A program made the position numbers and the translations under genes. From assembly GCA_051453625.1 (NCBI GenBank), contig JBOZIK010000001.1, positions 25,007,948 to 25,042,012 on the forward strand: a stretch of DNA of 34,065 nucleotides, written 5' to 3'. Below are positions 280 to 30,767 of this stretch, piece by piece; positions within the stretch are counted from its first letter, which is position 1; the number at the start of each line of letters is the position of its first letter. This DNA is from Welwitschia mirabilis (Eukaryota). The notes under the pieces are model-generated. The model ran no database searches. It worked only from the letters and a program-made list of their open reading frames with translations, and was not told where the DNA came from.

Positions 280-2775
280 CATTTTAAATATCTAGGAGCA
301 GCAATGGTGAGTGTCACTTTAAAAAATAATATAAGATTAAGAAAGCCTTAATTGATATTAGAAGTAGTGTTAATATCATGTCCTTATATATTTATCAAAA
401 ACTTGATCTAGAATAAAGAGTAAAACCTACACAGATTGTTTTAGAGGTGGCTGATACTTCTGTGAAGAAATCGTTAGGTGTAATTAAGGATTTGGTTATT
501 CATATAGAAGAATCTTTTTACCCCATTGATGTTATAGTTATAGAATTTGAGCACCATTATGAATACCCTTTACTTCTAGGTAGAGCATTTGGTGCAATAG
601 CCCATTATATTATAGATATAAGAATCAGTTTGATGGGGTGCATTTTGGAAATAAACAGTTTTTAATAAGAGTTTTTGATGCAGCCAAAAAATATTTAGGT
701 AATAATTTGAGTGTGATGAAAGAAATTAGGCCAACTCTATTTTTACAACACCATCCACTTGAGGAAAGATGGTCCATGCTTCACAAATCACCATTATTTG
801 ATGTCCAAATTAAAAGTAGACAACTTGTATGTTTTTAAAGATTAACTTGATTTGACCATTTGAAAACTAAATTTTTTGATCTAGAGAGTAGAGAATTTGA
901 GTCTGTTAACTGTACAGAATCTTAAGATTTTAGTATACCAAAGATTTCTTATTTTGAGGGTGGTCATCCACTATTGACATCTGAACAACAGTCTGAGATG
1001 ACAGTTTATTTTCCTAAGAAATTTATAGAGACTGAAAATGAACTTAAATCTGAATATGAAAACTTTAGATAGTGGACTAAAATACATTTTTTAAATAGTG
1101 ACTTAAACAAGCCTTTAATTATCAATGAAAACCTTACCCCTTAATAAGAATTGAGTTTAGTCTCTCTTCTATAATTAAGATAAATGCATTCACTTGGTCT
1201 TATAATGATTTGATAGCCATACCCACTTCCATTATTTAATATAAAATCTAACTTTAAAAAAAACATTAAATCTATGAGGCAACTCTAATGTAGACTGAAT
1301 CCAACCCTTAAATAAATTATAAACAATGAAATCATAAAGATTTAATGGATGTTGAAATCATTTATTCAATTTCTGATAGTGAGTGGATTAACCCCTTAAT
1401 GATAAAAAGATGGGAAATAGAGAATGTGCATAAAATTTAGAAAATTAAATGAGGTAATTAAAAAAGATCATTGTACTTTGCCTTTTCTTGATCAAATTCT
1501 TGATAGGATTTAGGATCATGCTTTACTGTTTTCTTTATGGATATAGCCATTACAACCAGGTTTGCATTACTAGTGAGAACTAAGCCAAAACCACTTTTAC
1601 TTTTCCTTTTGGTACTTTTGCCTTTAGATGCATGTCTTTTGGACTTTGTAATGCTTCTAGTACTTATCAGCATGCTATGATGTGTATCTTTTCTAATATG
1701 CTTGAGGATTCCATTAAGATTTTTTATGGATTACTTCTCTATTTATGCTAAAACTTTTGAACAAATCTTAGATTGAATAGAGAAAATCTTAGACCATTAT
1801 ATTTTTAGTGGTCTATACTTTAGTTCGGAAAAGAGTCTATTTCTTGTAGAAAGTGGCATTTTTTAGTCACCATATCTCTTGAGAGGAAATTAGGATGGAT
1901 ACTTTTAATGTTGGTATTATTCAAAATTTACCTATAAATGTTAAACAAGTTTTATTTTTTTCTTAGTTATTATGGCTTTAACCATCAGTTCATTCACGAT
2001 TATGCTAATATTTGTAAATCCCTTCACTAATTACTAGATAAAGAAGCCAAATTTAATGACATGAATCTTGTTAACTTGCTTTCAATAGGCTTAAACATAA
2101 ATTATCTTATTCTACTATAGTAACAGGACCTAATGGAGAACTAGATTTTGAGCTTATGTGCGATGCGAATAATTTGTTGTGGGTGGGTTGTTTGTCAAAA
2201 ATATGAAAATGATTTTAAAGTTATATCTTATCATAGTAAATCTTTGTCTAGAGCTTAAATGAAGTATATTCCTATAGAGAAAGAGATGTTATCTATTATC
2301 TTTTACCTTGATTCTTTTAGACATTATCTATTAGGCTTTCATAGTTTACATCGATCATGCTTTTATTCATTACCTTATGACTAAGAAAGATTCTACTGCA
2401 TGTTTGATTAGATGGATCTTTCTTATGCAATATTTTAACTTAACCATTATAGATAAAGTAGAAAAGCATAATTATGTCAACAATCACTTATCTCGACTTC
2501 CTTTTCCTCCAAATGATATTATCATTGATGATTCATTTCCTGATGAGCAGCTTTTTATTATTTTCTCTTCTCATCATCCTTCTTGATATGCAAACATTAT
2601 TAACTATGTTGTGACCATGACAACATTACAATGCTATAATTTTAATCAATGTAAATATTTTCTCCCTAGGATAGTTAACTATGAGTGGATAGAGCCACAT
2701 TTATATCCCTGATTGGAAAATACTTGAGGTCCTTCATCTTTATCATAGTGGTACTTGTGGAGGACATTTTAGTGG
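280..2775 (+). pseudogene. pol: Degenerate Athila-lineage Ty3/gypsy pol, copy 1 (aspartic protease, RT, RNase H, start of integrase)
   Basis: Protease: KALIDIRSSVNIM (~354; cf. ALCDLGASINLM) and ORF 447-665 ADTSVKKSLGVIKDLVI...PLLLGRAF. RT: KDHCTLPFLDQILDRI, YGYSHYNQ, TTFTFPFGTFAFRCMSFGLCNASSTYQ, and FMDYF at ~1723 (cf. FMDDF). RNase H: FELMCDA (~2150) and RWIFLMQYFNLTIIDK...NHLSRL. Integrase zinc-finger start HSGTCGGHFS just before the gap. Many stops and frameshifts. Confidence 0.93.
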
Positions 2776-2875
2776 NNNNNNNNNNNNNNNNNNNNNNNNN
2801 NNNNNNNNNNNNNNNNNNNNNNNNNNNNNNNNNNNNNNNNNNNNNNNNNNNNNNNNNNNNNNNNNNNNNNNNNNN
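2776..2875. other. Assembly gap (100 N)
   Basis: Run of exactly 100 N, the usual placeholder for a gap of unknown size. Confidence 0.99.
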
Positions 2876-4711
2876 AGTAGTATGTAAAACCTAAGTTCCC
2901 TTATAAATATTAGACAGGTTAAATATTTTCTTCATCATTGTGGTTTTTACCATTGGTTTATTCATGATTATGCTAATATCTATAAACCCCTTTACTCATT
3001 ACTAGAGAAAAACTCTAAACTTAAATGGAACGAATCTTGTCAACTTACTTTTGAAAGGATTAAACATAAACTTTCTTATGCTCCTATAATAATGAGACCT
3101 AACTGGGAAAAATATTTTAAACTTATATGCGACGCAATTAATTTTGCCATAGGTGGGCTTCTTTGTCAGAAACATGAAAATCATTTTCATGTTATATCTT
3201 ACTGTGAAAAATATTTGGTTATTATGTTTTACCTTAATCTCTTAGACATTATCTTTTAGGATTTTATTCAAATGATTACACTGACCATGCTACCATTCAT
3301 TACCTAATGACCAAGAAATATTCTAGTACATATTTGATTAGATGGATTATATTTATATAAGAGTTTAACTTAACCATTATAGATAAAGAAGGGAAGCATA
3401 ATTCTATTGTTGATCATTTATCTCATTTTTCTTCTCCTCCAAATGATTCTATCATTGAAGCTTTATTTCTTGATGAGGAGCTTTTTATTGTATCTTCTTC
3501 TCATCCTCCTCCTTAGTATGTAGACATTATTAACTATTTTGTGACCATGAAAAAACTATAACATTAAACCTATAATTAATGCAAATATTTTATCCATATA
3601 ATAGATGACTATGAGTAGATAAAGCCACATTTGTATCATAGGTAAAAAAATTAAATCATGAAAAAATATGTGTTTAATTGGGAAATACCTGAAATCCTTC
3701 ATCTTTGTCATAGTGGTGTTTATAGAGGACACTTTAGTGGACATAAAACAGTGATGAAAATCCCCCATTCTAGTTTTTATTGGCCTTCTCTTTTTTATGA
3801 TTATTTTAATTTTGTTAGAATATGTGATCCTTACCACCATTATGATAGTCTTGCTCATTCATAGGAAATACCCCTTAAACCTATTCTTGAGTGTGAGCCT
3901 TTTGATTATTGGGGTATTAATTTCATAGGTCCTATACATCCACCTTCTTTTGATAAGCATTATATTTTAGTAACTATGGATTATGTGATTAAATGGGTTA
4001 AAGCTATATTACTTCTTTGAATTAAGACCCAACTATTTCTTTTTTCTTAGAACTCATATCTTTCAAAAGATCAGGGTACTTATTTCATTAATCAGATTTT
4101 TAGAAAACTTCTTTTTTCCATTAGTATAGAACATAGAATATCTTGTGTTTATCATCTTCAAACTAATGGAAAAGCTGAAAATGTTAATAGAAAAATTAAA
4201 AAAAGTTAGAAAAACTTATCTTATTAATAAAAAGTCTTTGGCTTCTAAATTAATGATGTACTTTGGTCTTACTATACTACTTGGCATACTTCTCTTGAAT
4301 TTTCACCTTACAAACTTATATACAATAAAGTTTGTGTATTGCCTCTTGATGTGTGTTATAATTCTTATCATGCATCTTATTAACTTAATTTTATAGATTT
4401 TCATAAAAACCTTAAATATAGATTAGCCCATTTAAATCATCTTAATAAAAAAAGAACTTATGCCATACATCATAAATTAATCCATAAAGCTAAGCAAAGT
4501 TAAAACATGATAAAAAGATATTTCATAAAAAATTTGAACTAGGTTAACTTCTTTTGTTATATAATACTAGAGTTCATCTTTTGAATAATAAGTTAACCTC
4601 TAAATGATTAGGTCTTTATCTTATAGATATTCTCATGGCTCAATTGAGATTTTATACTTAGAAACTAGAGAGACTCGGAAGGTTAATCGATAATGATTAA
4701 AATTATACTAA
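2876..4711 (+). pseudogene. pol: Degenerate Athila-lineage pol, copy 2 (RT connection, RNase H, integrase)
   Basis: FKLICDAINFAIGGLL; HLCHSGVYRGHFSGHKTVMKIPHSSFYWPSLF (ORF 3658-3864); PILECEPFDYWGINFIGP; YILVTMDYVIKWVKA; DQGTYFINQ; YHLQTNGKAENVNRKIK; C-terminal KVNR**LKLY (cf. Athila KVNGQRLKHY). Confidence 0.93.
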
Positions 4712-8788: not shown

Positions 8789-9862
8789 TGTTGCATTGCT
8801 AACTTACACTTATTTGATAGGGTATTCTAAGTGGTTTTATAGGTTAATAGATAGGTCTTGATTTTTATAATAATGGAGAAATAAAGTAAAAGAGATGAAA
8901 ACATGCAATATCCATAATGATTTACAGTATTTTGAGCAATTTTGAATACTTTACATTTCTAAGACAACTTCCTATAAAACATTGAGGCTGATGCACTGAT
9001 TAAAGATTTGTCAAAGATCGTCATCCATTTCATCATTTAAACGACTATACGGATGACCAAGAAAATTGTGCCAATAGGGATGTTGACTATAATCAACCTA
9101 ATAGCTAATGTGAATTAATTATGAGGTATCATCATCTCTTCTATCATCCAGACAAGCAGTCATATGAGATTGTTGTAATGTCTACATTAAACATTCACCT
9201 AACTTCTACCACATATATGTTTGTTTCTTCTTGCATAATCATTACGGCTTTACATATGCCTTTTTATTTGTATTCTTATGTGCTTATGTATTAATAAATA
9301 GTGATCTCATCCTTGACTTCTGCTTGTCTTCATTTGCACCTGAAGTTCTCGTGACAGAAGATCAAAGGGCTTAAGATCCATCCTTGTAGTTACAAAGAGA
9401 TTTTTTACATGGTGTTAGATAGTGTTTCCTCCATTGAGGTGTGGCTACTTTATAACATGAATGTGGTTCATGATTTAATATAAAACATTTTCTTTTATAA
9501 TTTTAATGCATATTTGTCCTTCACCCTCATAGCTTATATGGTTTATGATTCATTAACGGTTTCTTTAATCATATAGGTTATGAGGGTAAACTTTGTCAAG
9601 GTTATGCATGATTAGTTTAGGTTAGGTGCATTCTTATTTCCTATTCCTAGATTAGCTTTACATGGGTGTATTATATTTACTTTCGTGCATTGTAAGTTAT
9701 TTCTATAGTTAGAGTATAAGTATTTCTATGTAGAAAGCAACTCTCTTATTTCCTAACTTAGCCCTTGATAGATTATAACATTTATGGCACTTACGTCTAT
9801 ATTAGTATGTTGTGTTTATGTATTATATCCGTAATTAATGGGATTCTACTTAAAACGTAACA
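8789..9862 (+). repeat. Probable 3' LTR (~1.07 kb) of the Athila-like element
   Basis: Starts TGTTGCATT right after the PPT and ends AACGTAACA (reverse complement TGTTACGTT), an imperfect terminal inverted repeat differing only by transitions. No partner LTR is in the window, so the right end is inferred. Confidence 0.55.
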
Positions 9863-9944
9863 TTGCATAAATACATACCACAATACTTATACTTAAGGAA
9901 TCTATTTTAATAAATGTGTTAAAATCCTATATTACTCATAGTGG

Positions 9945-10065
9945 TTAATTTAAAATAACATCTTATTTTCATAACAATTTTAAATAAGGATAATTGATAA
10001 TTTTATTAAAATCTTAATATACTTAACATTAGATAAATAAGGTTTACAAAATATGGAATATGACA
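9945..10065 (-). repeat. Recognisable remnant of the 3' LTR of the chromovirus
   Basis: tttaaaataacatcttatttt...aaaatcttaatatacttaa...aataaggtttacaaaatatggaatatgaca aligns with 17375-17492. It begins TGTCATATTC on the - strand directly after the PPT. Confidence 0.85.
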
Positions 10066-16556: not shown

Positions 16557-19496
16557 AAGAGGAAAGTATCTTTTTTACAAAAGAGAAAAAGAAAGTATCT
16601 CTTTTTACAAGAGAGAAAAAGATTTCTATATATAGATAAACAAAGGCATATAGCTCAAGATCATAAGATCACATAACTTAGAATTGGTAAATAGGATGGA
16701 TAATAATTAATATCGAAGTACAAAAAGAGATCATATTTATGACTTATGCACCTAACTAGGGTGAACAATCTTCTTGTTTTAATTAGTAAGGCTAATTAAA
16801 TGCATCATTTTCTCATGTTAGCTCCTTTTTAATCATTCATAAGCTTATAAGTAAGTTTAATTCATCTAATGCATGCATCAAAAGAATAAATGCATAGATC
16901 TTAAAATTGTCATATGTCATAATGAGACAAATTCTTTATATTCAATAAATAAAACAATAAGTATGCTATGAATCAAATGTCCTTACACATATTAAGAACA
17001 TAAAAGTCATGGTGGAGTAAATCTACTCATTTATCATTCTTATTGCTAGGTAAGAATGCATATACTTTTTAAAATGCTCATTTATTTTAAAATGCATAAA
17101 TTCTATCAATCACATAACATAAGAAAAAAATGTTTATTCATAATAGAGTATACCTATTACATTTATCAAGAATTTAAATGAGTAAATAAGATGAAAAGTA
17201 TATTATTATTTTCTCTTAAAATTTTTAATTTACTAGTTTTATCATGTACTTTTAATTCCTTACATAATGGGATTATCTAATTTTAAATGTTTGAATAGAT
17301 TTTCTCATACAAACCTTCTAACATAATGTTTATCATTTTCATGATAAATTATGAATATTAAAAAATAACGTTACTTTAAAATGACATCTTATTTTGGCAA
17401 GGCCTTTAAATAAAGATAATTAATCATTTGACCAAAATCTTAATATACTTAATATTCAAGTCAATAAGGTTTATAAAATATAGAATATGATAGTGAAAGT
17501 AATTTTTATTTTTAAATATTAAAGATAATTAAAAATGTTTTAATCTTAACATTAAGTATGAAAGAAAAGAGGGAAAAAGATGAAAAACACAAGGAAAAAG
17601 GAATTGATTATGATATAGTTAAGCTAAGTAGATCTTGCTCACAATCAAACTTAGCTTAATCTATCCAAATAACAAAAATAGATCAAATTAAAGTGAGAAT
17701 CACATCAATGGGTTTTTTCACTCCTTCTAAATTGATTTGAAAATATTAGTTTTAAAGGAGGAAAATTACAAAAAGCTAAGATATGTAGGTAATAGAATAA
17801 TATTTTTAAGGAATATGTTGAAACTCAACTCATCTATAATTGAGATATAATGCCCATTCCACTTGCATTAAAACTAGAAAGAGATGCAAAAATTAAATTC
17901 ATTTTAATCATAATCAAACTATTACTAAAGAAATATGTTGAGATGAATGCACTCAAATGCACTTAAACCATTTCTTAATTAACATTATGCCAATAATGCT
18001 TATAGGAGGTTAAGGCTTAAGAAGGTAATTTCTTTAATGAGAAAATACATATCAACATTGGTCAAGATGTGTGAGTGTAGAGTAAGACAAAAATTACTAT
18101 GACTAAAAAACCATGTGGCTAGAAATGGCAAAAGTCAAGGGAGAATACAAGAAACAACCACCGAAGTTGTTATAAGACCAGTGATTGACTAGTGATGATA
18201 AAAGACAATAAATTCTATAAAGAAAAATGCCAAATTCCATGATAGCAATATTGATCACCTGAGGAGAACTATAAAGGAAATGGAGGTGGGATCTAAAAGA
18301 AGTAAAGATTTCAAGATTAAGACTAACACCATACTATTAAACACTACTTATATTCTCCCATTTACAGATAAAAGAACATGCATGTAAGAAAGACATTAAA
18401 AGGCCTCGATACTACATAAAATCTTTAGAAGGGAAGAAAAAATTAATTACATGAAATTATATCTTTGAAAAATTAATTTTCTTCTATAAAAGAGTCAAAG
18501 AAGTAACAAATAAGAGACTATCTTTGCAACAGAATCAAAAATCGACATAAAAAAAGAACAAGCTAACTTTAAGATTTCAGTAATGTAACATGATTTCTTT
18601 AAAAATGGAATAAGGATATTAATATCAAGAATATAAGTTATAACAACCTCAATTTATTTAGCTACAAAAGAAATCTCAAGACTGTAGGCCTTCCAGAATC
18701 ATATAGAGAAGGATAAGTAGACTACACATGAAGAACTCTTATAGAAATCACAACATAACCTCCAAAAAATACTACAATGATAATAAATATAAATAATAAA
18801 ACCTATATCTAAGTGAAACCATAAGAAAAACGAGCATGGAAAGGATATTCAAGGGCATTCAAAGAAACACAAAATCCAAGAGTCTTAGGAATCCTATCCT
18901 AAGCTTTAAAATCACATGAAAAAGTAGAGCAAGAAGAGTAAAATTCAAAGCAAGATTTCAAAAAGCATAGTTTTATTTTTCTCTTATTTTAACAGTAGAG
19001 ATTTCTTTTATAGGTAAGCAAACATAATTAGGGTTTTCACTAGGATTCTTATCTTCTCCAAGTATGGTACCATAGTGTAACTTATTAATTTCTTAGCATA
19101 AGATAGATGATACAAAAGATAGAATTGCAATTTTCATCTCTAAGATGATGGAATTAGGAAGCATAACAAAAGTTATAAAGTTGCTTAATTATAAAATTAT
19201 ATGGAATTACAAATGTTACAAGTAAACTCTAAATTTGTAAATTTTTCATTTTATAGTTTTAATAAGAGCAAAGTAGTAATTTTTAATAAAGAAGAACATA
19301 AATGAATAGATATATTTATAGACATTATTAGAATAATATTTGAATACTTTAAAGGTAAAAAGCTTAATTCATATGTTATTTTGAATAAGAAATAAATAAT
19401 TAAATGAACTTCTATAGATGTGCAGTTCGATAACAAAGATTATGTATTATTAGAGTATTATATATTAATTATAGAAAGAAAAAGGTATATTATAGT

Positions 19497-19584
19497 ATTA
19501 TTGAAGTATTGGATTCAAAAATTTTATCATATAATAATTCATTATTAAAGTATTAGGTACAAGAATTTTATCATATAATAATTC
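19497..19584. repeat. 44-bp tandem duplication
   Basis: attattgaagtattggattcaaaaattttatcatataataattc / attattaaagtattaggtacaagaattttatcatataataattc. Confidence 0.9.
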
Positions 19585-19649
19585 CAAATCGACCTTATGG
19601 TCTAAATTTATTATCATCAAAATAGATTTAGAAAAAAAGGAAAATATTT

Positions 19650-21063
19650 CTTATTCACTTATATCTTTTTGTTGTAGAAAAAGAAAACATCAATAAAATA
19701 AACTAGATAAGTACTTAGTATCATTCTTCCATAGGAATAATTCAAGGTGATACTAAATAAAGGTAACATAGACTTCTCTAACCTATAAAAAAATAAAAAT
19801 AAAAATAAAAAATGGAGATTGAGATGAAATTAAACTTGGTGGGCAAAGTAAGAAGATGAACTAACTCTAGACACTTCATTTAAATCTTTTACCCCCCATA
19901 GTACTTTCAATTTAACAACATCCTATAATTTTTTAAAATAATCATAAGATTGTTAAGTTGTTTAAGGCTTAGATCATGGTAACATAATCTCATTCACTAT
20001 ATGAGTGTCGGTGAATTACTCAATCCCTCTAATCCTTTATAGCCCTTTATAAGCATGAAAAGTAGAAACTATTGTGCATACTATCCATTAAATAATAGCA
20101 ACTAGAAGTTTTAGAAGTAACCTCAAGAAGCTCTCTTAATAAATAAAAGAAATTAACATGTATTTTTACTTAAGAATTAAAAGTACGAGGTTATGCATAC
20201 TAGAAATCGAAGAATCAACAACTCCTTTTATATTAAAACAATAAGTACATTACATTGGAGGATAAAATTAGAGTAGATATAGGATATTCAAAGCTAACCT
20301 CAAAGCTAACTTGCTCCTAAATAAGGGCCTTATAATGCCATGTTAACTTAATTTTCCAAGGTTTCACCAATTTTTTACCAATTAAAGATCCTCTACACGT
20401 GAGGGCTCAAGGCCCTTTTATAGTTGAAAGAATGATTAGGAGTCTTTAGCTTGTAGAGGCTAGTGATGATTTCACTTTAGATGATTACAATTTTCTTATG
20501 TAGCCTTAGATGGAGTTTATCTTCTTACGTTATGTGAAGGTTATCTTCTTGTATTAGGCAGGGGTTCTTATGATGAGCCCAACACTTGGCCTTTGGATCA
20601 TGATGCCTCTACTAGCTAATGATATCAGCATGCATTTCTAACATCACCACCATGTTACTACTACATGTGATTATCATGTATCATTTTATGCCTTTACCAT
20701 GGGTCAGTGAAGTTGATGGTTATTTATGACTTAATTTCTGACTAAGCCTATAGGTGGAATTTGATCAATTTTCCATGAAGGTTTTAAATGTACCTTTGAA
20801 TGTATACTACCTCAAAGAACCAGAGGTGTCAGTGGCCAAAATTGTAGCACTGATGTTTCTTGATGGATTTTCTTCAGTTTTTGTCATGTCTTTTGGAAGG
20901 TAGCAATTAAGTTGAAATTGTTGTGAAAAAGTTCATAATTTCATAAATCATGTATAAATGGCTGAAGACATAATTTTATGATAAAATAGTAATTTTAATG
21001 TCTTCACCTATACTAAATTGATCAAATATACTTAGTATGAATGTCAATTTTTACATGTAAACA
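19650..21063 (-). repeat. LTR copy A (3' LTR of an Athila-like element)
   Basis: Colinear with copies B-D along its length. Starts TGTTTACATG on the - strand directly after a PPT-like motif. TATA-like CTATAAAAGG at 20414-20423. The left end is placed by alignment to copy C. Confidence 0.88.
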
Positions 21064-21102
21064 CATCCCTTAAGTAGACTTTTACTAGTCTCTTAGCAAA
21101 AA
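21064..21102 (-). promoter_or_regulatory. Degenerate Athila-type PPT region
   Basis: - strand tttttgctaagagactagtaaaagtctacttaagggatg|TG resembles the Athila ttgct.gaggac.agcaaa...taag.gggg motif. Confidence 0.6.
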
Positions 21103-23700
21103 GTTGATAAAGAAATGTCAGCATAGAAAATTATCTTTGGAAAAATACTCAAGTATAAAAAATGATATAAGCTTTGAAAATTCTTTAATTAAGTTTATAA
21201 AAAGGCATTAAAATTAGTAAAATTCATGAAAAAATAGATGTCATGCCTTCTAATGAAAATTGAACTTTGTCATCAAAGTTTTTAAGAATATAAAAGGTTT
21301 TATACAATTTTTGAGAATATTCTAAAAATTAAGTTTTTCATTACATGTAATTTTAACACTACAAGCTTAGAAAAACACTTTGATGCAACATACTAACATG
21401 CAAAAAATATATATATATATAATGCATAAAATGTTACAGTAGAAATACTCTTTGCAATAATGATTAATCACTATTTTTCAAATTAGGATTACTATGAGGA
21501 GAATGAAATTGAAGGTAAAAATAAAAAAATGAAGGCATAATGTGATGGTCGAAAATGGATTATAGTCAATTTTTGGAAAATTTAGTGGTTACAAAAAAAT
21601 TAAATAGAATACAAATGACATGTATGATGCTACTAAATAGTTTGAAAGTAAAAATTTAAAAATGGGTAGTGGCAGCAGTAAGGACTAGTGACAATGCTAG
21701 TTGTTTGGAGATTCTACAAGTGAAATTTTGGGAAATGATTTATCAATCAATATGATAGAATTTAATTTTATAGATTGAATTCAATGGTACATGGAATGAA
21801 TAGAATAGGGATCGAATGAAATTTGCACTACATGATGAAAAATGAACCATTAAAAACTAATATAGATTCATATTTTTTTGGTTTTCTTTTTCATTTTTAC
21901 AAATTTTTCATTTTAGTAGTTGGAATCTAGGTTTGATATGTTTTAGTGTTTTTCTAAAAATTCTAAAAAATAGAAAGACTTTTAGGTCTTTGTATAGATT
22001 TTTTTCATTTAATCCCATTACCATTTCATTTTTTTACTATCTATTTTCTATGATCCATTACATAAATTAATTTGCATGGAAAAGAATGTGTTAATATTTT
22101 TTTTCGAGCCATTTCTCTAAAAAAGTTTGGCACTATTGTGAAGAGTAATCTGCACTATCAGCTTTTTCATAAAATTTTGCTCAAATTTTAAATACAACTT
22201 TTCTTGGATATCTTGAATCCTTATAATAGTAAGCCCTCTATAAAACCTTGAAAATTTTGTAGAAGTATGAAATACCATATGAACTATAATATGTTTATGA
22301 TAATTGTGTAAATCCTTATAGCTTGATTAATTAAATTTAATCTTAAAAATTATAAAAGATTACATTTGATCCAAGGAAATTTTAGGGCTTCCCTTTAATG
22401 TGGAGATAACAACCAAACCATTTAAAACCTTAAAACCCTTCTGATAGTAGACAAACTTTTAGAGATTATTTTCAAAGCCTAGAAACTCATTCACATATAT
22501 ATTAATCTCTTTATAACCTTGAGTTTTAAAGTCCTCATTTTGATTAAAATTAGTTTGATTACATGCCTTCCATTATCCCTCATAACACTTTTTCTTTACT
22601 ACCTTGTCAATATCCATCATTTTATTCTTACTTATCTAACCATTAACAACCTTCTTCATGTACTTCATTAAAGGAATCATTAAGGAAAAATGCTTATAAA
22701 TCCAAATCCAAATTATCCATGATCATGAGAAAACTCTTAAGCAAATTCTTCTTTCTTAAATGAACTTAAATAGACCATCTAATAACATGCTTTTTCCCTT
22801 AATAAACTTGACCAAATTCTCCAACAAATTAATAATACACTTAACCAACAAAAAAAAAGAATACTTTCTTATATTTTATAATCCAAGAGTCTTGAAAACC
22901 TTAAAAGAATTGATGATACTAAAATTAATGATACCTAAGCCATGTCCTTTATAAATGAGGAATAAATCAATAAGGAAACCTATGAGGAGCTTATGTTTAA
23001 AGAAATCCTAGTGAGTGTACGAAGAATGAGTCAATAAGCAACATCAATGAGAAGGATAATATTCAAGAATAGTCTTTTTTTCCTTTAAATTACAACCATT
23101 TTTTCTTGAGAAACTACATGAGGAGGGAACCCCTAGCAACCTTTATGAAAAAGATAACATTAGAAAAGAGCTTATACTTAATCCATCTGATGTAAAAACT
23201 TTGCCTTTTTTTAAATATCTTCATGATCCAACCATTTTAATTTCATCCTTACGTACTAAGAAAGATCCAAACATCAATGAAGAAGACAAATCTTCTTTAG
23301 GATTGAAATCATCTCCTAATAATTTTGTTAATGAACATTTACCTTCTTCAATGATTCCAATTTACATTTATCTTCATCTAAAAATGATATCTTGTATGAG
23401 TTACTGAGAAAATAAAAATAAGGTAAAGAATGAACTATTTCTAACTTTGAATGAATAAACTTTACTACTTATACCAATGTTATCTCTAATTTCATGGACT
23501 CTTGCATAAAAATGTACATGGATTATCTTCCAACTCAAAATGCTTTACAAAATTTTGAATCATTGAATCTTTGCTTCCATGCTCTTGAGCCATTTTCTAT
23601 ACATCATCTTGGAATATTCTTTTGTTTTAAAAGTTTAATTTTATTTTCTTATTCTTTTAGATCTGGGTTTTTTTAAAATTAAAATTTCTTTTTAGATTAG
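21064..23700 (-). mobile_element. Internal region upstream of LTR A, with no recognisable gag or pol
   Basis: Adjoins the PPT and LTR A. No RT, RH or INT motif seen. The right boundary is uncertain. Confidence 0.45.
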
Positions 23701-24856
23701 ATATAGAATGAAAAAAAAAAAAGCTTTAAAAACATTTTTGCTTAACAGTCTCTCTTTCCTAAAACCATCCAAGCACTACCACTTACATAATCATTGTCTT
23801 AAATCTTTTCATTTAGAAAACTCCAAATACCACCCACAACTTAGAATAAGCCATCATCACATTAAATCTCATCATCCACCTTTTTCAACTTGGTACTACC
23901 TCATAAAAATTATCAACCATTGTTTCCTTCCATTCATCTATGAATTCTTAAGACTTAATAACCCTAGTTGATGGCCATTAATAGGTAATCTGCTAATAAG
24001 TGATCATATTGTTAGTGCAAGTTTAGGTAGAATTTAAATTAACTTATATTTTTCAAGAAAAAGTTATACTTGTTTTTGAGTTATCTTATTAAGAATTATG
24101 TCACTTAAGGTCTTCAAATTTGAAAAATATGATCAAAAAAGATGAAATTTACCTTTATATTATATTCTTTATTTTCAAGTATTTTATGGGAATAAAACCT
24201 TTCTTGATTGGGCTAATGAACCAATGACCCTTTTCATGTACATAAAAAAATAATGAATATAAAAAATAGAAATCAAAAGAAAATAAAATATCTATTCTCC
24301 ATAAGAACATTTTATGATCACTTAATTAGATTTAGATAATTGCATTAGGGCTATAGACACTCACAGGTAATATAGCTCTAATGATCTATTTATAACATGA
24401 TAAACTACATCAAGGCTATATAAACTCATTAGCAATGCAGTACTAATTTCTTCAAGAAACAACATGCTTAATTCTATTAGAATAAAATGTTATAATAGTG
24501 GATGCTTAATTTTATCCAAATGCTCAAAACAAGAAACATGTGTGATTGTGAAAAAGGTAAATTATGGAAATAAAATATGGGATTTGAATATACTTTTGTG
24601 ATTACTTTTTTAAACTTATGTTCTTGAAAATTTTCTTATTAATTTTTGAACATTTATAGTTTTACCTTAAGAATATCTTATTTATTTAATATTTTGATCC
24701 ATTAGAATAAACATAAAACTTAAAAAAATTCAATAAAATAGCCATTTTCCTAGCCATTTTTTTCTTCTACATTTATATGTGTTTGGACTAGTTTTTGTCT
24801 CTATTATCATGCATTATAAATAAAACTCTAGTTATAATGATTTTTAAAAATCTACT

Positions 24857-26255
24857 TGTAAGACAAATGTCTATCCCTTGTAGTAAAAGAAAAATTCTAT
24901 AAAACTAGGTAAGCAACTAGTATCATTCTTCCATAGGAATAATTGAGGTAAATCTTAGTAGAGGTAATATAACATTCTTCAATCTTAAAGAAATCAAAAC
25001 AAAAACTGAGAATGAGATTTGTAATGAATTTGAACTTTATTGATGAAGTACGAAGATGAACTAACTCCAAAGCTTCAACTTGAATCATCTAAATTCTAAA
25101 ACTTTTATTTTAATAATGTTCTATAATTTCTTAAAATAATCAAAATTGTTAAGTTGTTTTAAATATTGGTCCACAGTGACATAATCTCATTCACTACATA
25201 AATTTTGATGAATTACTTAGTCCCTCTAATCCTTTATAGCTTTCATAAGATGGAAAGTATGAACTATTATACATAATATCCATCAAACAATAATGACTAT
25301 GAATCTTAGAAGTAACTTCAAGAAACTCACTTAGTAAATAAAAGAACTGCATAATGTAATTTCACCTAAGGATCAAAATTATGAGGTTACATATACTAGA
25401 AATCAAAGAATGAACAACTAATTTTATAATAAAATAAGAATTATATTACATCAGAGGATGAAAGTAAAAAGATACAGAATCCTTAAAGCTAGCCTCAAAG
25501 CTATCTTGCTTCTAAAGGGAAAAGCTCAAATGCTATGTCAACTTAACTTTATAAGGTTCCACCTATTTTCCACTAATTGCATCTTCCCTACAAATGAGGT
25601 CTTAAGATCCTTTTATATGTGAGGAAAGAATCAAGATCCTTTAGCTTATAGTAGTTAATGGTAGTTACAATATAAGCAGTTATAATTTTTGTCATGTATT
25701 TTTAGATGGAGGTTGTCTTCTTGTATTAAGTAAAGATTATCTTTTTATATTAGGTGAAGTTTGTTATGATAAGTATAACCCTTTTGAATCGTGATTCCTC
25801 TACCAACCAATGCTATTGTCATGTATCTGTAATATCATCGCCATGTTACTACCATGTTTTATTACCACATGTCATCTTGTGCTTTCACCATGTATTATGA
25901 AATTTAATATTTGTTTTTAATTTAGGTTTTTACTAAGCCGATAAATGGAATTTTATCAATTTCCTATGAAAGTTTTAGAAGATAACTTGGAATGCATTCT
26001 TCCTCAAAGAACCAGTGACACCGATGGCCAGGATGGTGCTACTAAAATTTCTAATGGATTTTATTTAGTTTTTATCATGTCTTTCATAAGATAGCAATTA
26101 ACCTGAAACTATTATGGAAAAGTTCATAATTTCATAAATCATGTATAAAATGGTTGAAGACGTAATTTAATGGTAAACTAACTATTTTAATAACTCTGCC
26201 TATGATAAATTAATCAAATATACTTGGTCTAAATGTTAATTTTTACACCTAAACA
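24857..26255 (-). repeat. LTR copy B
   Basis: Colinear with A, C and D. Ends ...acacctaaaca (TGTTT on the - strand). TATA-like motif at ~25609-25618. The left end is approximate. Confidence 0.88.
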
Positions 26256-26785
26256 TGTAGAAAAATTAGAAATAGCTACATAGATATGAAATTATTATCA
26301 TAAAAAAATTTCTATAAAAATAGAAACTTTAGGTAACTAATAAAACTTTAAAAAATGCATACAAATCTAAAACTAGCTACTAAAATAAAACTTGCACAAA
26401 GCCAAAAAAAAAAAACATAAAGAAAGATGATTTCTATTTTAGTTTTAATGTTTCATCTCTTTTGTCCTCTTTTGAATTGCAACTTACAAAAAAATTATTA
26501 GACTTGCAACATAAAAGATCTAATATGGAAAATGAATTTTAGGTTAGATCAAAATCTAGATAAAACTTAGAAAAGGATCAATTTTGGTATTACTAGTAAC
26601 AGATTATTATCACCATTAGGGATAATAGAAGATTAAAGAGATACTCAAAAGGAATAGTACTAGTTTGGATATCACTAGTAATGATTACTATCAACCACTG
26701 GAAGACTGAAAGAAATTACAAGAAAAAAAAGTTATACTCCTTTTAAGAAGCTATCATATCATTATTCCTAGCAATAGTGCCAAAA
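26256..26785 (-). repeat. Spacer 1: PBS plus 5' leader following LTR C
   Basis: Homologous to 28173-28570 (shared aaaatagaaactttagg, taaaactagctactaaaataaa, aaaagatctaatatggaaaat, ttttaggttagatcaaaatcta). Confidence 0.9.
26765..26782 (-). promoter_or_regulatory. Primer-binding site, tRNA-Asp (Athila) type
   Basis: - strand TGGCACTATTGCTAGGAA versus the Athila consensus TGGCGCCGTTGCCGGGGA. All six differences are C>T or G>A, five at CpG. It lies 3 nt after the LTR-terminal CA. Confidence 0.82.
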
Positions 26786-28172
26786 TGTATTTACCCAAAT
26801 ATTTTCATTATAGTTAAAGGTAAACATTAATAAAATAAACTAAATAAATACCCACTATCATTCTTCCATAAGGATAAATTGAGGTGAGATTAAACAGAGG
26901 TAATATAGACTTCTCTAACTTGTAATGAAATCAAAACAAAAACTAAAAATAGAGATTGATAAGAAATTAGACTTAGGTGGTAGAGTAGAAAGACAAACTA
27001 ATTTTAGAGGTCTAGATTGAATGATCTAAATTTTAATACTTTTAATTCAAAAATATCCTATAAGTTCCTAAAATAATCATAAGATTATTAAGTTATTTAA
27101 GAATCAAATTTGGTTATGTAATCTCATTAGCCACATGAGTATTAGTGAATTACTTAGTCCCTCTTATCCTGCAAATCCCTTCATCAGCATGAAAAGTAGA
27201 AACTATTATGCACAAGATCCATCAAATGATAGAAACTACAAATCTCAAAAGTAACCTCAAGAAACTCACTTGGTAAATGAAAGAAATTAACAATGAAGTT
27301 TTATCTAAGGATTAAAAGTATGAGGTTATGTGCACTAGAAATTAAAAAATGAATAGCTAATTTTATATTAAAATAAGAAATACATTACATTAGAGGATGA
27401 AAATAGAATAATTATAGAATCTTTAAAGATAGTCTCAAAGCCAACTCACTCCAAAAGGGGGATCTCAGAAGGCCATGTTAACTTGGTGCTCTAAGGTTCT
27501 ATCTATTTTTCACCAATTAAATCTCCTCTAGAAATGAGGGTTGAAGGTCCTTTTATAGGTGAGGTAAGGCTTAGAAGCCTTTAGTTTATAATGGTTGGTG
27601 GTAGTTATTACTTAGGTAATTACAATTTTTATCATATAGCTTTGAATGAAGGTTGTCTTCTTATGTTAGATGAAGGTTATCTTCTTCTATTAGGTGGAGG
27701 TTGTTATGATAAGTTTAATACTTGTAATTTAGATAACGATACCTCTACTAACCAATGTTATTACCATGTGTCTCCAATGTTACCATCGTGTCCCTACCAC
27801 ATGTTGTTGCCATGTGTTATTTTACACCTATTCAATGTATCATTGAAGTTGATTGTAGTTTTTTATTTAATTTTTTACTAAGCCCATAAGTGGAATTTAA
27901 TTAGTTTCCCATGACGATTCTAGAACATAGCTTTGGATGCATTCTTCCTTAAAGGACTAGTGGTGCCACTGGCTAGGATGGTAGCACTAACATTTTCCGA
28001 TGGAATTTCTTCATTTTTCATCATGCCTTTTAGAAGGAAGAAATTAATTTGTAATTATCATGGAAAATTTCATATATTTAATACTCATTTTATGATAAAA
28101 TAACTATTATAATATCTTCGACAATGCTGATCAAATATACTTAGTCTGAGTGTCAATGTTTTCATGTAAACA
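26786..28172 (-). repeat. LTR copy C (both termini intact, 1387 bp)
   Basis: + strand TGTATTTA ... TGTAAACA termini, adjacent PBS, and CCTATAAAAGG at 27549-27559 on the - strand. Confidence 0.92.
27549..27559 (-). promoter_or_regulatory. Candidate LTR TATA box
   Basis: CCTATAAAAGG on the - strand. The TATAAAAGG core is at the equivalent position in all four LTR copies (20414, 25609, 27549, 29244). Confidence 0.6.
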
Positions 28173-28579
28173 TAGGCAGAAAATGAAAATAGCTAAGTAT
28201 ATATGAAATGATTATAATAAAGAACCCTAAAAAAATAGAAACTTTAGGAAACTAAGAAATATGAAAAATACACACATAACTAAAACTAGCTACTAAAATA
28301 AATCTTATAGAAAATAAAATGAGCCACAAAAAAGGTGAAATCTATTTAAGTTTTATTATTCTATTTTTTTAGTTCTCTTTTACATTTTAACCTATAGAAA
28401 AATCATTAGATCTATAATATAAAAGATCTAATATGGAAAATAATTTTTAGGTTAGATCAAAATCTAAATAAAACTCAAAAAAGGACTAATTTAGGTATTA
28501 TTAAAAAATGACTAGTACCCACAACTATAGAAAAAAGAAAATAGAAGATACACTCAAAAGAAAAAGGACCATAAGATGA
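28173..28579 (-). repeat. Spacer 2: 5' leader copy lacking the PBS
   Basis: Aligns to 26256-~26655, then jumps into LTR D. The PBS and the LTR's 3' tip are missing. Confidence 0.88.
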
Positions 28580-29855
28580 GCATCAATAAAATAAACTAGG
28601 TAAGTACCTAATATAATTATTTCATAGGAATAATTTGAGGTAAAACTAAACAAAGGCAATACTAACTTCTCCAACTTGCAACGAAATTAAAACAAAAATT
28701 AAAAATTAAGATTGATATAAAATTAAATTGGTTAATAAAGTAGGAAGATGAACCAACTTTATAGGTCTATCTTGAATAGTTCAACTTGCATTAGTTTTAC
28801 TTTAATAATATCCTGCAATTTTTTGAAAAAATCATAAGACTGTTAAATCATTTAAGGCTTAGATCATGATGATAGAATCTCCTTTACCATATAAATAGTG
28901 GTGAATTACTTAATTCCTCTAATTCTTCATAGCCCTTCATAAGCATGAAAAGTACAAACTATTATGCACAAGATCCATTAAACAATAGCAATCATGAATC
29001 TCAAAAGTAACCTCAAGGAGCTCACTTAATAAAGAAAAGAAATTAATAACATAGTTTGACTTAAGGATTAAAAGTATGAGATTATAAACATTAGAAATAA
29101 AAGAAAAGAAAGACTTCTTAAAGCTAGTCTTGAAGGTAGCTCACTCCAAAAGAGAGAGCTCAAAATGATATGTTGACTTAATATTCTAAGGTTTTAACTA
29201 TTTTTCATTAATTAAAGATCTTCTACAAATGAGGGTTCAAGGCCCTTTTATAGGTGAGCTAAGGATTAGAAGCCTTTGGCTTGTAGTAGTTACTAGTGGT
29301 TACAATTTAGAAAATTACATTTTTTTCTCAAATAACATTAGATGGATGTTGTCTTCTCGTATTAGGTGGAGATAGTCATGATGATTCTAACACTTGGTCT
29401 TTGGATCATGATGCCTCTACAGACTAATGCTATCATGATGTATCTCTAACGTCACTACCATGTCACACATGTTATTTTATATATTCACCATATGTTATTG
29501 AAGTTTATGATTGATTCTAATTTAATTCTAACTAATCCCATAAATAGAATTTTATCATTTCCTCATGAATATTCTAGAACATAACTCTGAAAGCATTCTG
29601 CCTTAAAGAACTAGTGGTGTTAATGGCTAGAACAATAACACCAACTTTTTTTGATGCATTTTCTTAAGTTTTTATCATGTCTTTTAGAAGACAACAATTG
29701 ATCTGAAATTGTCATGGAGAAGTTCATAATTTTATAAATCGTGTATAAAATGGTTGAAGCCATAATTTTATGATCAAACAAATATTTTAATGTCTTCTCC
29801 TATGCTAAATTAATTAAATATACTTGGTCTGAATGTCTATTCTTTCATGTAAACA
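28580..29855 (-). repeat. LTR copy D (3' tip deleted)
   Basis: Colinear with A-C from catcaataaaataaactagg to catgtaaaca, with an internal deletion near 29105. Confidence 0.9.
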
Positions 29856-30767
29856 TTATTATAATTAAAAAAATAGCTTAGAGTAAGTGGAAATAAATTA
29901 GATTTGTTTTAAAATATGATAGAATAAACTACTTTAGTTCTTTAACTTATTTATGTATATTTATTATTTTTATTTATAGAATAAGAAAGGCATAAAAATA
30001 ATATACTCTAGAAATTCATTTTATACAGACTAATTTATATATTTATAATGTTCATGTGTAGAAAGTTATAATATCTATAGTATTAATTCTTATCATAAAC
30101 ATCAACTAAATAAATTAAAAGGGATATAGATGAATCTCATGAAGGAAAAATGTAGCTTCTTTAGATTCCTAGTCTTCCTTCTTTATCAATCACACTTGGT
30201 ATTTAGCTTGTGGAGTTCGATATCTCTCAAAAATGACATACAAATATATAAATCTCATCATTTATATTGAGATAAGTCAAATCTAGGTAAGTTACCTTTA
30301 AAATATTACAATACTTATGGTTTTAAGAATTTCTTAATAATGGAGTAGTCTTATTTAATGAAATGTTTGGTTTAAGATATTTTATTTAAAGACTAAATGA
30401 AGATATTAATTTTTAAACTCAAGTTTAAAAATCTTTGTATTTCATGTATGCACTATGGATTGAAAGGAAATCCTTTAAATGTATGTGAATCCATTAGTAA
30501 CATTTATTCTAAGATAAGAAACATCTAACTTCTAGAGAAGTAAACAAGAAGAATATTAGAAAAATAAATCAATTAAATTGTACTCTAATAACTAAGGATC
30601 TTGAAATTAAAAACATTTTTTAGATCCTTTACGAAGAATCTAGGGGAGAATAAAATAAAAATGAAGAGGGCAGTGTTTAAAATAATGTTAATAATAAAAG
30701 TTTAAATGATAACAAAAAGATACTTAAAGACATAAGTAATGGACTTAGAAATAATGAAGACAAAGCC

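Follow-up and report, generated by a model that had tools for sequence, protein, structure and literature searches.

A dead LTR-retrotransposon complex of Welwitschia mirabilis with a short array of LTR-plus-leader units, probably derived from a single leader-to-LTR junction

Tandem repeats built from a retrotransposon's long terminal repeat (LTR) together with its untranslated region (UTR) are known from the centromeric retrotransposons of maize, under the names CRM1TR and CRM4TR (Sharma, Wolfgruber & Presting 2013, PMC3648361). The origin proposed for them is an LTR-UTR~LTR structure, which grows by non-allelic recombination or gene conversion (PMC3648361). The monomers of CRM4TR, about 1.37 kb long, have kept a TATA box (PMC3648361). 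Two other kinds of array come close. Tandem LTR retrotransposons, in the accounts drawn upon here, repeat whole internal regions (Morales-Diaz et al. 2025, PMC11899658; Sabot & Schulman 2007, PMC1950507). Cassandra elements are small, hold a primer binding site (PBS) and a polypurine tract (PPT) in their internal domain, and form arrays whose units are almost the same (Kalendar et al. 2020, PMC7215508). The locus described here lies in a window of 34,065 nucleotides, the whole stretch of DNA that was analysed (contig JBOZIK010000001.1, forward-strand positions 25,007,948 to 25,042,012; positions below are those of the window). By our analysis its structural kind is the one already described in maize as CRM1TR and CRM4TR, and the locus is one old and small example of it.

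LTRs, spacers and their junctions

Self-BLAST and MAFFT alignment place four co-oriented LTR copies, A, B, C and D, on the - strand, and an LTR profile matches the window exactly four times, at these copies, with nothing else at E<1. LTR D (28573-29855, -, 1283 bp) is the outermost 5′ LTR of the complex and begins TGTTTACATG at 29855. A deletion has removed some 30 bp at its 3′ end along with the PBS and some 125 bp of leader; the loss at the boundary between D and spacer 2 is about 155 bp. LTR C (26786-28172, -, 1387 bp; TGTTTACATG...GGGTAAATACA) and LTR B (24857-26255, -, 1399 bp; TGTTTAGGTG...TTGTCTTACA) are complete, and LTR A (19649/52-21063, -) is the 3′ LTR of the complex. TGTTTA opens all four copies, while ...ACA closes B and C and ...AGA closes A; the TG...CA termini form a short inverted repeat (TGTTTAC / GTAAATACA). 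Each LTR also carries a TATA block, TATAAAAGGRYCTTNARMCCTCA, once (27535-27557 in C, and 20400-20422, 25595-25617 and 29230-29252, all on the - strand). The pattern for this block, designed from these same four copies, has four matches in the window and none in 100 shuffles, and the presence of the block in each LTR fits the - strand as the sense strand.

Spacer 1 (26256-26785, -, 530 bp) is made of a TTT linker, a PBS and about 510 bp of leader, and its terminus, TTTTTCTACA, directly abuts the TG of LTR B. Spacer 2 (28173-28572, -, 400 bp), from which the PBS has been deleted, has CTGCCTA as its last bases, and the TG of LTR C follows at once. It is homologous to the stretch 26256-26660 of spacer 1 (E 9e-41), the two showing 76.8% identity over 393 aligned sites, and this homology reaches the last base before TGTTTA. 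When B with its spacer is compared with C and its own, self-BLAST gives 1781 aligned columns at 73.3% identity. The preliminary description of this DNA, made from its letters, had seen three co-oriented LTRs separated by two homologous spacers at a period of about 1.7-1.9 kb, the two spacers stopping at the same leader position, where TG follows; self-BLAST and MAFFT bear out the former, with periods of 1917 and 1683 bp, and alignment the latter. Spacer 1 further holds a purine-rich tract, AAAAGAGGACAAAAGAGATG, noticed by eye some 200 bp before the junction.

The Athila-type PBS that had been reported at the start of spacer 1 is indeed there, in decayed form. It is a tRNA-Asp/Asn primer binding site, TGGCACTATTGCTAGG (26767-26782, -), lying 3 nt past the terminal ...ATACA of LTR C, and the PBS pattern has one match in the window against none in 100 shuffles. 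Published ATHILA elements have a PBS of the TGGCGCCGTTGCC type (tRNA-Asp/Asn) behind an AT-rich linker of 3-6 bp that follows the LTR end (ATHILAfinder preprint 10.64898/2026.03.20.713144). TTT followed by TGGCACTATTGCT matches this PBS at 9/13 positions, all four mismatches being G>A or C>T. Both the type of PBS and the AT-rich linker are thus like those of the ATHILA lineage of Ty3/gypsy, as far as it is treated in the sources used here (10.64898/2026.03.20.713144; PMC6317226). The likeness goes no further than this: the Athila ORF1, gag, pol and env-like sequence were not detected in the complex, and a Pfam scan of its frames finds neither Athila ORF-1 (PF03078) nor RT, RH or INT domains. 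The name given in the preliminary description therefore stands for the PBS, which matches the type, and falls short for the element, in which no coding domain was found; on sequence, the PBS alone would carry the label, and membership of the lineage is not established.

What precedes each LTR is as telling. Among the 20 nt before the TG, purines number 5/20 at B, 4/20 at C and 13/20 at A, where a PPT-like tract, AAAAGTCTACTTAAGGGATG (21064-21083, -), stands directly before the LTR. The junctions before B and C are without a PPT, as had been claimed, and their flanks are pyrimidine-rich, as the flank of their common ancestor already was. A repeat unit of this make-up, being without a PPT, is therefore unable to finish plus-strand synthesis or to move as a unit. 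That the array is not an ordinary TRIM or Cassandra array also holds, the LTR being 1.4 kb long and the flanks of B and C having 4-5 purines in 20. Reads with loose ends at 21117 and 26247 reveal the flank of the family, ...TTAGGAGATG|TGTTAACA; X14 has 256 reads, and X1 has 181 contigs, that leave B at 26247 for a ...TTAGGAGATG-type flank. A purine-rich flank like that of A is common to most copies of the family. Of the general marks of an LTR retrotransposon, the locus has direct TG...CA LTRs, a PBS inside the 5′ LTR and a PPT before the 3′ LTR. The termini, the PBS after C, the purine-rich flank at A and the TATA block identify the repeats as LTRs, with the - strand as sense. Scans for tRNA and Rfam families gave 0 matches in the window.

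These boundaries bear on two related ideas, that three elements of one family inserted in succession at the same leader nucleotide, or that the spacer is part of a longer LTR ending in a PPT of its own. For such a PPT one might turn to the purine-rich tract in spacer 1, about 200 bp before the junction. Yet A and D both open with TGTTTA behind flanks that are unrelated, and the flank seen family-wide, PPT|TGTTAACA, places the LTR start there. Triple nesting, for its part, needs at least three downstream 3′ LTRs, and A is the only one within the 24.8 kb of window on that side; the repeated self-targeted insertion put forward in the preliminary description thus lacks, in this window, the further 3′ LTRs that it requires. 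Contradicted by the LTR profile, the alignments and the reads, these ideas are scarcely credible.

The complex, its age and its copies

The array is not free-standing: it is the 5′ part of one D-to-A complex between low-copy flanks. Raw-read depth, with both orientations summed, is 1.9 (19300-19666) and 4.4 (29943-30300) in the flanks, against 16-482 inside. A candidate target site duplication (TSD) encloses the complex, AATAA before D (29856-29860, -) and AATAT after A (19644-19648); the match, 4/5, is weak in AT-rich DNA and would be expected by chance, on our estimate, in about one case in eight here. LTR B taken alone has a TSD match of 0/5 (CTACA before, AGTAG after). The flanks of D and A could not be aligned to the spacers (p 0.02-0.5, no value surviving multiple testing). 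The upstream flank of D was considered as a homologue of the spacer end, with a common AGCTATTT at the same offset and a BLAST match of 22 nt past the LTR, and this was not significant.

The interval between B and A is rearranged. LTR B is followed by 31 bp (24826-24856, -), where there is no PBS, and then by an internal segment (21844-24825, +) that is inverted relative to the family norm. Its joint on opposite strands, 21843|24825, is found in 8, 8 and 2 contigs and in 3 reads, and reads link the inverted segment to the 3′ internal region adjoining A. That region (21064-21843, -), the 3′ end of the internal region of the A-terminated element, ends in the PPT-like tract; spacers and region give long, gappy alignments of noise level, and homology between them was rejected. 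The high-copy part of the inverted segment is 23704-24825. Decayed + strand frames at 22483-23968 have no database matches, and the longest frame between B and A (115 aa, 23060-23404) has no homologue. A second linker-plus-PBS 13-mer occurs at 22126-22138 (+); what lies downstream of it shows no homology to spacer 1 after its PBS, and what lies upstream none to the LTR tail (z -1.0 to 0.1), and anchored tests of 22053-22125 as an LTR remnant were unconvincing (12 tests, p 0.01-0.8). At 21838-21934 (+) a putative third partial spacer is weakly supported, by a profile E of 0.0033 and about 5.5 SD in a tile scan, single-sequence nhmmer giving nothing. Autointegration with inversion was rejected as the source of the inverted segment: its topology would leave one LTR inverted. 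In a Pfam scan of 61 frames of at least 55 aa across the window, no frame in 19649-29855 reaches a gathering score, and the weak rows there hold no retroelement domain such as gag or pol; the element would be non-autonomous, or too decayed for coding domains. Remnants of RNase H and integrase at 2335-3861 (+) belong to another element.

The pairwise distances among LTRs A to D, which the preliminary description had proposed to compute, tell of age. Identity is 73-76%, K2P is 0.30-0.35 for pairs of LTRs and 0.27-0.28 for the spacers, and the three possible groupings are backed by 37, 33 and 28 informative sites, as in a star. To judge from these sequences, all four LTRs and both spacers are about equally old, and there has been no homogenisation. 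The array is indeed not an amplified, homogenised one of many monomers such as CRM1TR and CRM4TR, having three LTRs and two spacers at K2P 0.27-0.35. The earlier suggestion of a seeded macrosatellite is in part plausible, as regards a seed junction and local duplication; 'macrosatellite' is too strong a word for an unhomogenised set of three LTRs and two spacers whose divergence is 23-30%.

The same figures bear on whether the array is real. Its units are 23-30% different, and it is therefore not a duplication artefact of assembly. Short-read contigs of three samples cross the junctions with 0-1 differences, spacer 1|B (26255/6) excepted, and among the 24 pieces listed, of about 106,000, none spans spacer 1|B or the whole array. 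Depth in the spacer bins, 16.5 and 28.7, is the lowest in the array, against 30-482 for the LTR bins; read at a likeness of at least 80%, such depth depends on the decay of the local copy and bounds copy number only roughly. There is no sign of the unit being active or amplified at this locus. It might nonetheless be supposed that the unit of LTR, PBS, 0.5 kb and LTR moves as a non-autonomous element, or has been amplified and dispersed as a repeat, so that this locus would be one among many. Spacer bins have 4-15 times the depth of the flanks, which implies spacer-like sequence elsewhere, and a few contigs join a PBS of the spacer 1 type to an LTR tail (joint 26791>28588: 1, 2 and 4 contigs). 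The same reads are, however, equally expected from the ordinary 5′ LTR-PBS-leader ends of full-length elements. Neither unit has a PPT before the LTR, the ancestral flank was already pyrimidine-rich, most copies of the family have a PPT-type flank instead, and the units here differ by 23-30%; this makes a mobile unit very improbable. A metagenome scan with the 23-nt TATA-block pattern, which all four copies match, returned one contig, L001; its match to the LTR profile is limited to 56 bp (hmm 633-688) around the pattern, and it was set aside as unrelated.

How the array may have arisen

The locus is probably the fossil of a dead LTR retrotransposon with an 'LTR-5′UTR~LTR' structure, in which one seed junction was copied once and then decayed. 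On the - strand the order is D, spacer 2, C, PBS and spacer 1, B, rearranged internal region, PPT, A, with a repeat unit comprising a complete 1.4-kb LTR, the PBS and the first 0.5 kb or so of leader, joined to the first base of the next LTR. A single seeding junction, from a leader position X to the LTR terminus, would have arisen once; a single seed followed by copying is suggested by spacers whose homology holds right up to the TG, and by D and A flanks that are not alignable to spacers. The junction may then have been copied once, as sister chromatids underwent unequal LTR-LTR exchange or gene conversion, inside a single inserted complex and around the time when its LTRs were still alike. 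The copies would have decayed independently, without homogenisation or further amplification, and a later inversion would have scrambled the internal region between B and A. B is followed by neither the PBS nor the first 300 bp of leader, and because these are missing, B-A as the parent element rests on the read-inferred inversion and on an assumed deletion.

Nested insertion, deletion and aberrant reverse transcription all fit the formation of the seed junction. Because the junction falls on the terminal base of the LTR, we slightly prefer one made by integrase, deletion from UTR to LTR coming next. An element of the same family, in the same orientation, would have inserted into the leader, and LTR-LTR recombination would have removed the remainder. 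With such a nested insertion one would expect 5 bp of leader to be duplicated and the remainder of the host element to lie downstream; neither is present. A plain deletion, arising through illegitimate recombination or end joining and reaching from leader X to where a downstream LTR starts in a single or an already tandem parent, with unequal exchange to follow, is the model of Sharma et al. Proposed for CRM1TR and CRM4TR (PMC3648361), it also invokes what is the commonest fate of plant LTR elements (PMC11899658), and the locus has suffered a further deletion, that of about 155 bp between D and spacer 2. Its right breakpoint, on the other hand, would have to lie at about 0-3 bp from the LTR's first base, whereas the CRM4TR monomer starts at LTR position 138 and that of CRM1TR in U5, as random breakpoints predict (PMC3648361). 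We hold it to be an unlikely seed.

Star-like LTRs and one TSD are predicted just as well by a single aberrant product of replication that had formed before integration and gone in as one piece, and this weighs against the preferred reading of a seed copied in place. Several routes can be drawn: the minus strand, at the first base of the LTR (the 5′ end of plus-strand strong-stop), might jump to leader position X in a co-packaged RNA; reverse transcription might use a read-through or concatemeric template; or a circle of LTR, PBS and leader (1..X), born of autointegration, might recombine into a 5′ LTR. The LTR's terminal base, where the junction lies, is a natural end for a template or for integrase, equal star-pattern divergence of LTRs and spacers is expected if they were identical at insertion, and low-copy flanks with the 4/5 candidate TSD enclose the complex; tandem LTR retrotransposons with one TSD, from single insertion or template switching, are moreover documented (PMC11899658; PMC1950507). 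The published cases of template switching or tandem elements, however, repeat complete internal regions and not a leader stub. For two units to end at X, the same jump would have to occur twice, or a later duplication at the DNA level would be needed anyway, and at a K of about 0.3 copies that were identical at insertion look no different from copies duplicated soon afterwards. An autointegrant of the inversion type would give inverted LTRs, which are not seen, and no direct evidence supports the intermediates. We give this product a small chance, the best among the alternatives; the more definite proposal that the array is the fossil of a replication intermediate (a strong-stop run-off to the leader of a second template, or a captured autointegration circle), integrated whole with a single TSD, seems doubtful.

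Comparison with described systems

By itself the finding has little weight. The UTR~LTR junction on the terminal base of a complete LTR hints that an end made by integrase or reverse transcriptase, and not a random deletion, can seed such arrays. Recurrence of the same type of junction throughout a genome would have a bearing on the way in which retrotransposon-derived satellites start. If the array did come from a replication intermediate, it would be natural plant evidence for a replication error joining an LTR terminus to its own leader.

With TRIM and Cassandra arrays the locus shares the head-to-tail order of LTR, short internal domain and LTR, for which LTR recombination or template switching has been invoked (PMC7215508). 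It differs from Cassandra in its 1.4-kb LTR, in having no PPT and in units that are old and diverged. As in the tandem LTR retrotransposons, in the accounts cited, LTRs alternate head-to-tail with internal sequence and internal LTRs are shared (PMC11899658; PMC1950507), a single TSD may surround the whole complex and the same debate opposes unequal recombination to template switching (PMC11899658; PMC1950507). Unlike in those elements, LTRs do not alternate here with complete internal regions: there is a leader stub of 0.4-0.5 kb, the repeated part being the PBS and about 0.5 kb of leader, without PPT, upstream of one fuller internal region.

The nearest systems are CRM1TR and CRM4TR. There as here, the monomer combines LTR sequence with the 5′ UTR beside it, which runs straight into the next LTR, and the remaining internal region is absent (PMC3648361). 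Unlike CRM4TR, which starts at LTR 138, and CRM1TR, which starts in U5, the present array has a complete LTR with the junction on its first base; the PBS is retained, only three LTRs and two spacers are present, and units are 23-30% diverged, as against the 95-98% likeness of units in CRM1TR and CRM4TR (PMC3648361). CRM is a centromeric chromovirus, whereas the parent here, with its Athila-type PBS, is not shown to be one. The locus thus adds to the tandem structures of LTR plus 5′ UTR an example with a PBS of the Athila type rather than one from a centromeric chromovirus.

Anatomy of the array

The framework of the locus is a repeat of about 1.4 kb, present in four copies that all have the same orientation, as recognized by self-BLAST, a repeat finder and a four-way MAFFT alignment. 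These LTRs lie on the minus strand, A at 19649-21063, B at 24857-26255, C at 26786-28172 and D at 28573-29855 (limits from self-BLAST and MAFFT), in the order D, C, B, A along the sense strand. A profile built from the four matches them alone in the window, and the block TATAAAAGGRYCTTNARMCCTCA (minus strand) is kept in every one of them. Spacer 1 (26256-26785, minus strand) separates C from B and spacer 2 (28173-28572, minus strand) separates D from C; the two are homologous, with 76.8% identity over 393 sites, and self-BLAST aligns B and its downstream sequence with C and its own over 1781 columns.

On the minus strand all four LTRs start with TGTTTA, and B and C end in ...ACA. Because the flanks of A and D have no relation to the spacers, the placement of the LTR boundary at TGTTTA has a fourfold basis. 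In both spacers, homology continues to the very last base ahead of the next TGTTTA. The final 20 nt before that motif comprise 5 and 4 purines at the spacer ends, against 13 before A. About 30 bp are missing at the 3′ end of D, as are the PBS and about 125 bp of the leader that followed. The observation made in the preliminary description was accurate in each of its elements: LTR copies, homologous spacers, PBS, a shared spacer end directly against the next TG and pyrimidine-rich flanks. Smaller repeats are superimposed on this arrangement. LTR C carries a 24-bp tandem repeat (27646-27704, 2.5 copies, TRF score 83), and the other copies have a variable block in the matching region. In spacer 1, two adjoining copies of about 45 bp of a motif with ACTAGTAA can be seen by eye at 26570-26700, where spacer 2 is alignable in part only.

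The primer binding site, TGGCACTATTGCTAGG, begins 3 nt past the end of LTR C, and the corresponding degenerate pattern finds a single match in the window compared with none in 100 shuffles. According to the ATHILAfinder preprint, the published Athila PBS is TGGCGCCGTTGCC, placed after an AT-rich linker of 3-6 bp. The site following C agrees with it at 9 of 13 positions, all four differences being GC>AT transitions. The Athila label proposed earlier has support from the PBS and from no other feature. The 13-mer made of linker and PBS, TTTGGCACTATTG, occurs again at 22126-22138 (plus strand), within an inverted segment and on the strand opposite to the array; we estimate the chance expectation of such a second occurrence in the window at about 1e-3. 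Its flanks could not be aligned to the tail of LTR C or to spacer 1.

Family reads and the surroundings of the array

That the units differ from one another by 23-30% rules out an assembly duplication. Contigs from three samples, belonging to two organism codes, match the window with 0-1 differences (one of the samples, X1, may be its source), and they span the outer end of A, 21843/4, C|PBS, C|spacer 2, spacer 2|D and the outer end of D, as well as, together, the junctions 24825/6 and 24856/7. Neither spacer 1|B nor the array in full is covered by any of the 24 pieces listed out of about 106,000. Reads agreeing with B or A as far as the first base of the LTR continue into a common flank, ...TTAGGAGATG|TGTTAACA, to which A's own flank, AAGGGATG|TGTTTACA, is similar. 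Divergence into this flank is displayed at 26247 by 256 reads (sample X14) and 181 contigs (sample X1), and at 21117 by 440 reads and 370 contigs. Most copies of the family therefore have a PPT-type flank, which makes A a 3′ LTR; the exception is the direct spacer|LTR junction found at B and at C.

The outer flanks have a raw-read depth (at least 80% likeness, both read orientations summed) of 1.9 and 4.4, compared with 16.5 and 28.7 for the spacer bins and 30-482 for those of the LTRs. This contrast indicates that the spacers are the least repeated part of the array, and that the complex running from D to A is bounded by these two LTRs within low-copy DNA. Depth also varies with local decay and limits copy number only roughly. 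Immediately outside the complex stand AATAA (at D) and AATAT (at A), a candidate TSD matching at 4 of 5 positions; we estimate that such a match would arise at random with a probability of about 1 in 8.

The region between B and A is rearranged. No PBS comes after B, which is separated by 31 bp from an internal segment. Reads from other copies of the family connect ...24825 with ...21843 in reverse complement, in the orientation opposite to that of the window; this joint of 21843|24825 on opposite strands is found in 8, 8 and 2 contigs and in 3 reads. The breakpoints as they stand in the window are both confirmed by contigs, in two samples. The simplest reading is that 21844-24825 was inverted within an element whose 3′ end (21064-21843, PPT and LTR A) is intact. 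The decayed plus-strand frames of the inverted segment gave no Pfam or homologue match. Part of it, 23704-24825, is a high-copy repeat (depth 217-388, that of the flanks being 2-4) without protein or RNA match, followed in other copies by the 3′ internal region that here adjoins A. At the start of the segment, 21838-21934 (plus strand) has a weak match to the spacers in their 3′ half, with a profile E of 0.0033 and about 5.5 SD in a tile scan; single-sequence searches against the spacers returned nothing. This stretch may represent a partial third spacer that stood beside B before the inversion, or else the leader native to the B-A element; anchored alignments favoured neither.

The window as a whole is AT-rich (GC 19-36% per 1-kb bin), devoid of long reading frames and interrupted by three N runs. 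Its sole clear protein signals, remote from the array, come from remnants of a Ty3/gypsy RNase H and integrase (2335-3861, plus strand), where a decayed pol retains RT_RNaseH_2 (2888-3256, E 7e-13) and an integrase zinc domain (3655-3861, E 2e-7). The two arms of a tandem duplication of 0.84 kb (1933-2775 and 2902-3740, with 71% identity) lie on either side of a 100-N gap (2776-2875). Two short dispersed repeat pairs are unrelated to the LTR family, one direct (9944-10063 and 17370-17490, 82% identity), the other inverted (46-195 and 8789-8933, 72% identity). When family reads are compared with the window over 19300-30300, C>T and G>A dominate the differences (in X14, 624 and 603 places, compared with 45-52 for C>G and G>C), an excess consistent with methylated repeats decaying by deamination and with the very low GC.

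Origin and age of the units

The repeated unit, in which a complete LTR with PBS and about 0.5 kb of leader abuts the first base of the next LTR, is an LTR-5′UTR~LTR structure. It keeps promoter block and PBS, and could be transcribed and prime minus-strand synthesis; lacking a PPT, it could not complete replication, and as a unit it is not mobile. Two spacers that end at one nucleotide point to a single seeding junction, copied once. This junction would have been duplicated by unequal LTR-LTR exchange or gene conversion, the established route of growth for such arrays (PMC3648361, PMC7215508, PMC11899658). As the seed sits on the terminal base of an LTR, an end made by integrase or reverse transcriptase is favoured over random deletion, and a deletion-type seed appears quite unlikely. 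The footprints of a nested insertion, a TSD in the leader and a remainder of the host, are both absent from the locus. On balance, we consider DNA-level duplication following an integrase-type seed the probable origin.

K2P distances are 0.30-0.35 across the six LTR pairs and 0.27-0.28 between the spacers. The three possible groupings are supported by 37, 33 and 28 sites, with 80-121 singletons per copy: the relationships form a star, B, C and D being no nearer to one another than to A, and the copies have not been homogenized. With a plant substitution rate of 1.3e-8 per site per year, their age would be of the order of 10 million years. The same star pattern, with a single TSD, would be expected had the entire complex arisen in one piece as an aberrant replication product (compare PMC1950507 and PMC11899658), an origin that we regard as rather unlikely. 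Beyond duplication from an integrase-type seed, a deletion-type seed and a one-piece product, all remaining readings together hold very little probability.

Comparison with known systems

As the preliminary description had proposed, the structure differs from the TRIM and Cassandra arrays: the LTRs are 1.4 kb long and there is no PPT. Its suggestion of a macrosatellite goes too far for a locus with two spacers only and no homogenization. A standard tandem LTR retrotransposon was also rejected, the repeated internal part being a stub. The closest known structures are CRM1TR and CRM4TR of maize, which are tandem repeats of LTR and UTR. Their monomers start inside the LTR (PMC3648361), whereas here the junction falls on the LTR's terminal base. 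The array is a new, small and old example of an already known kind of structure.
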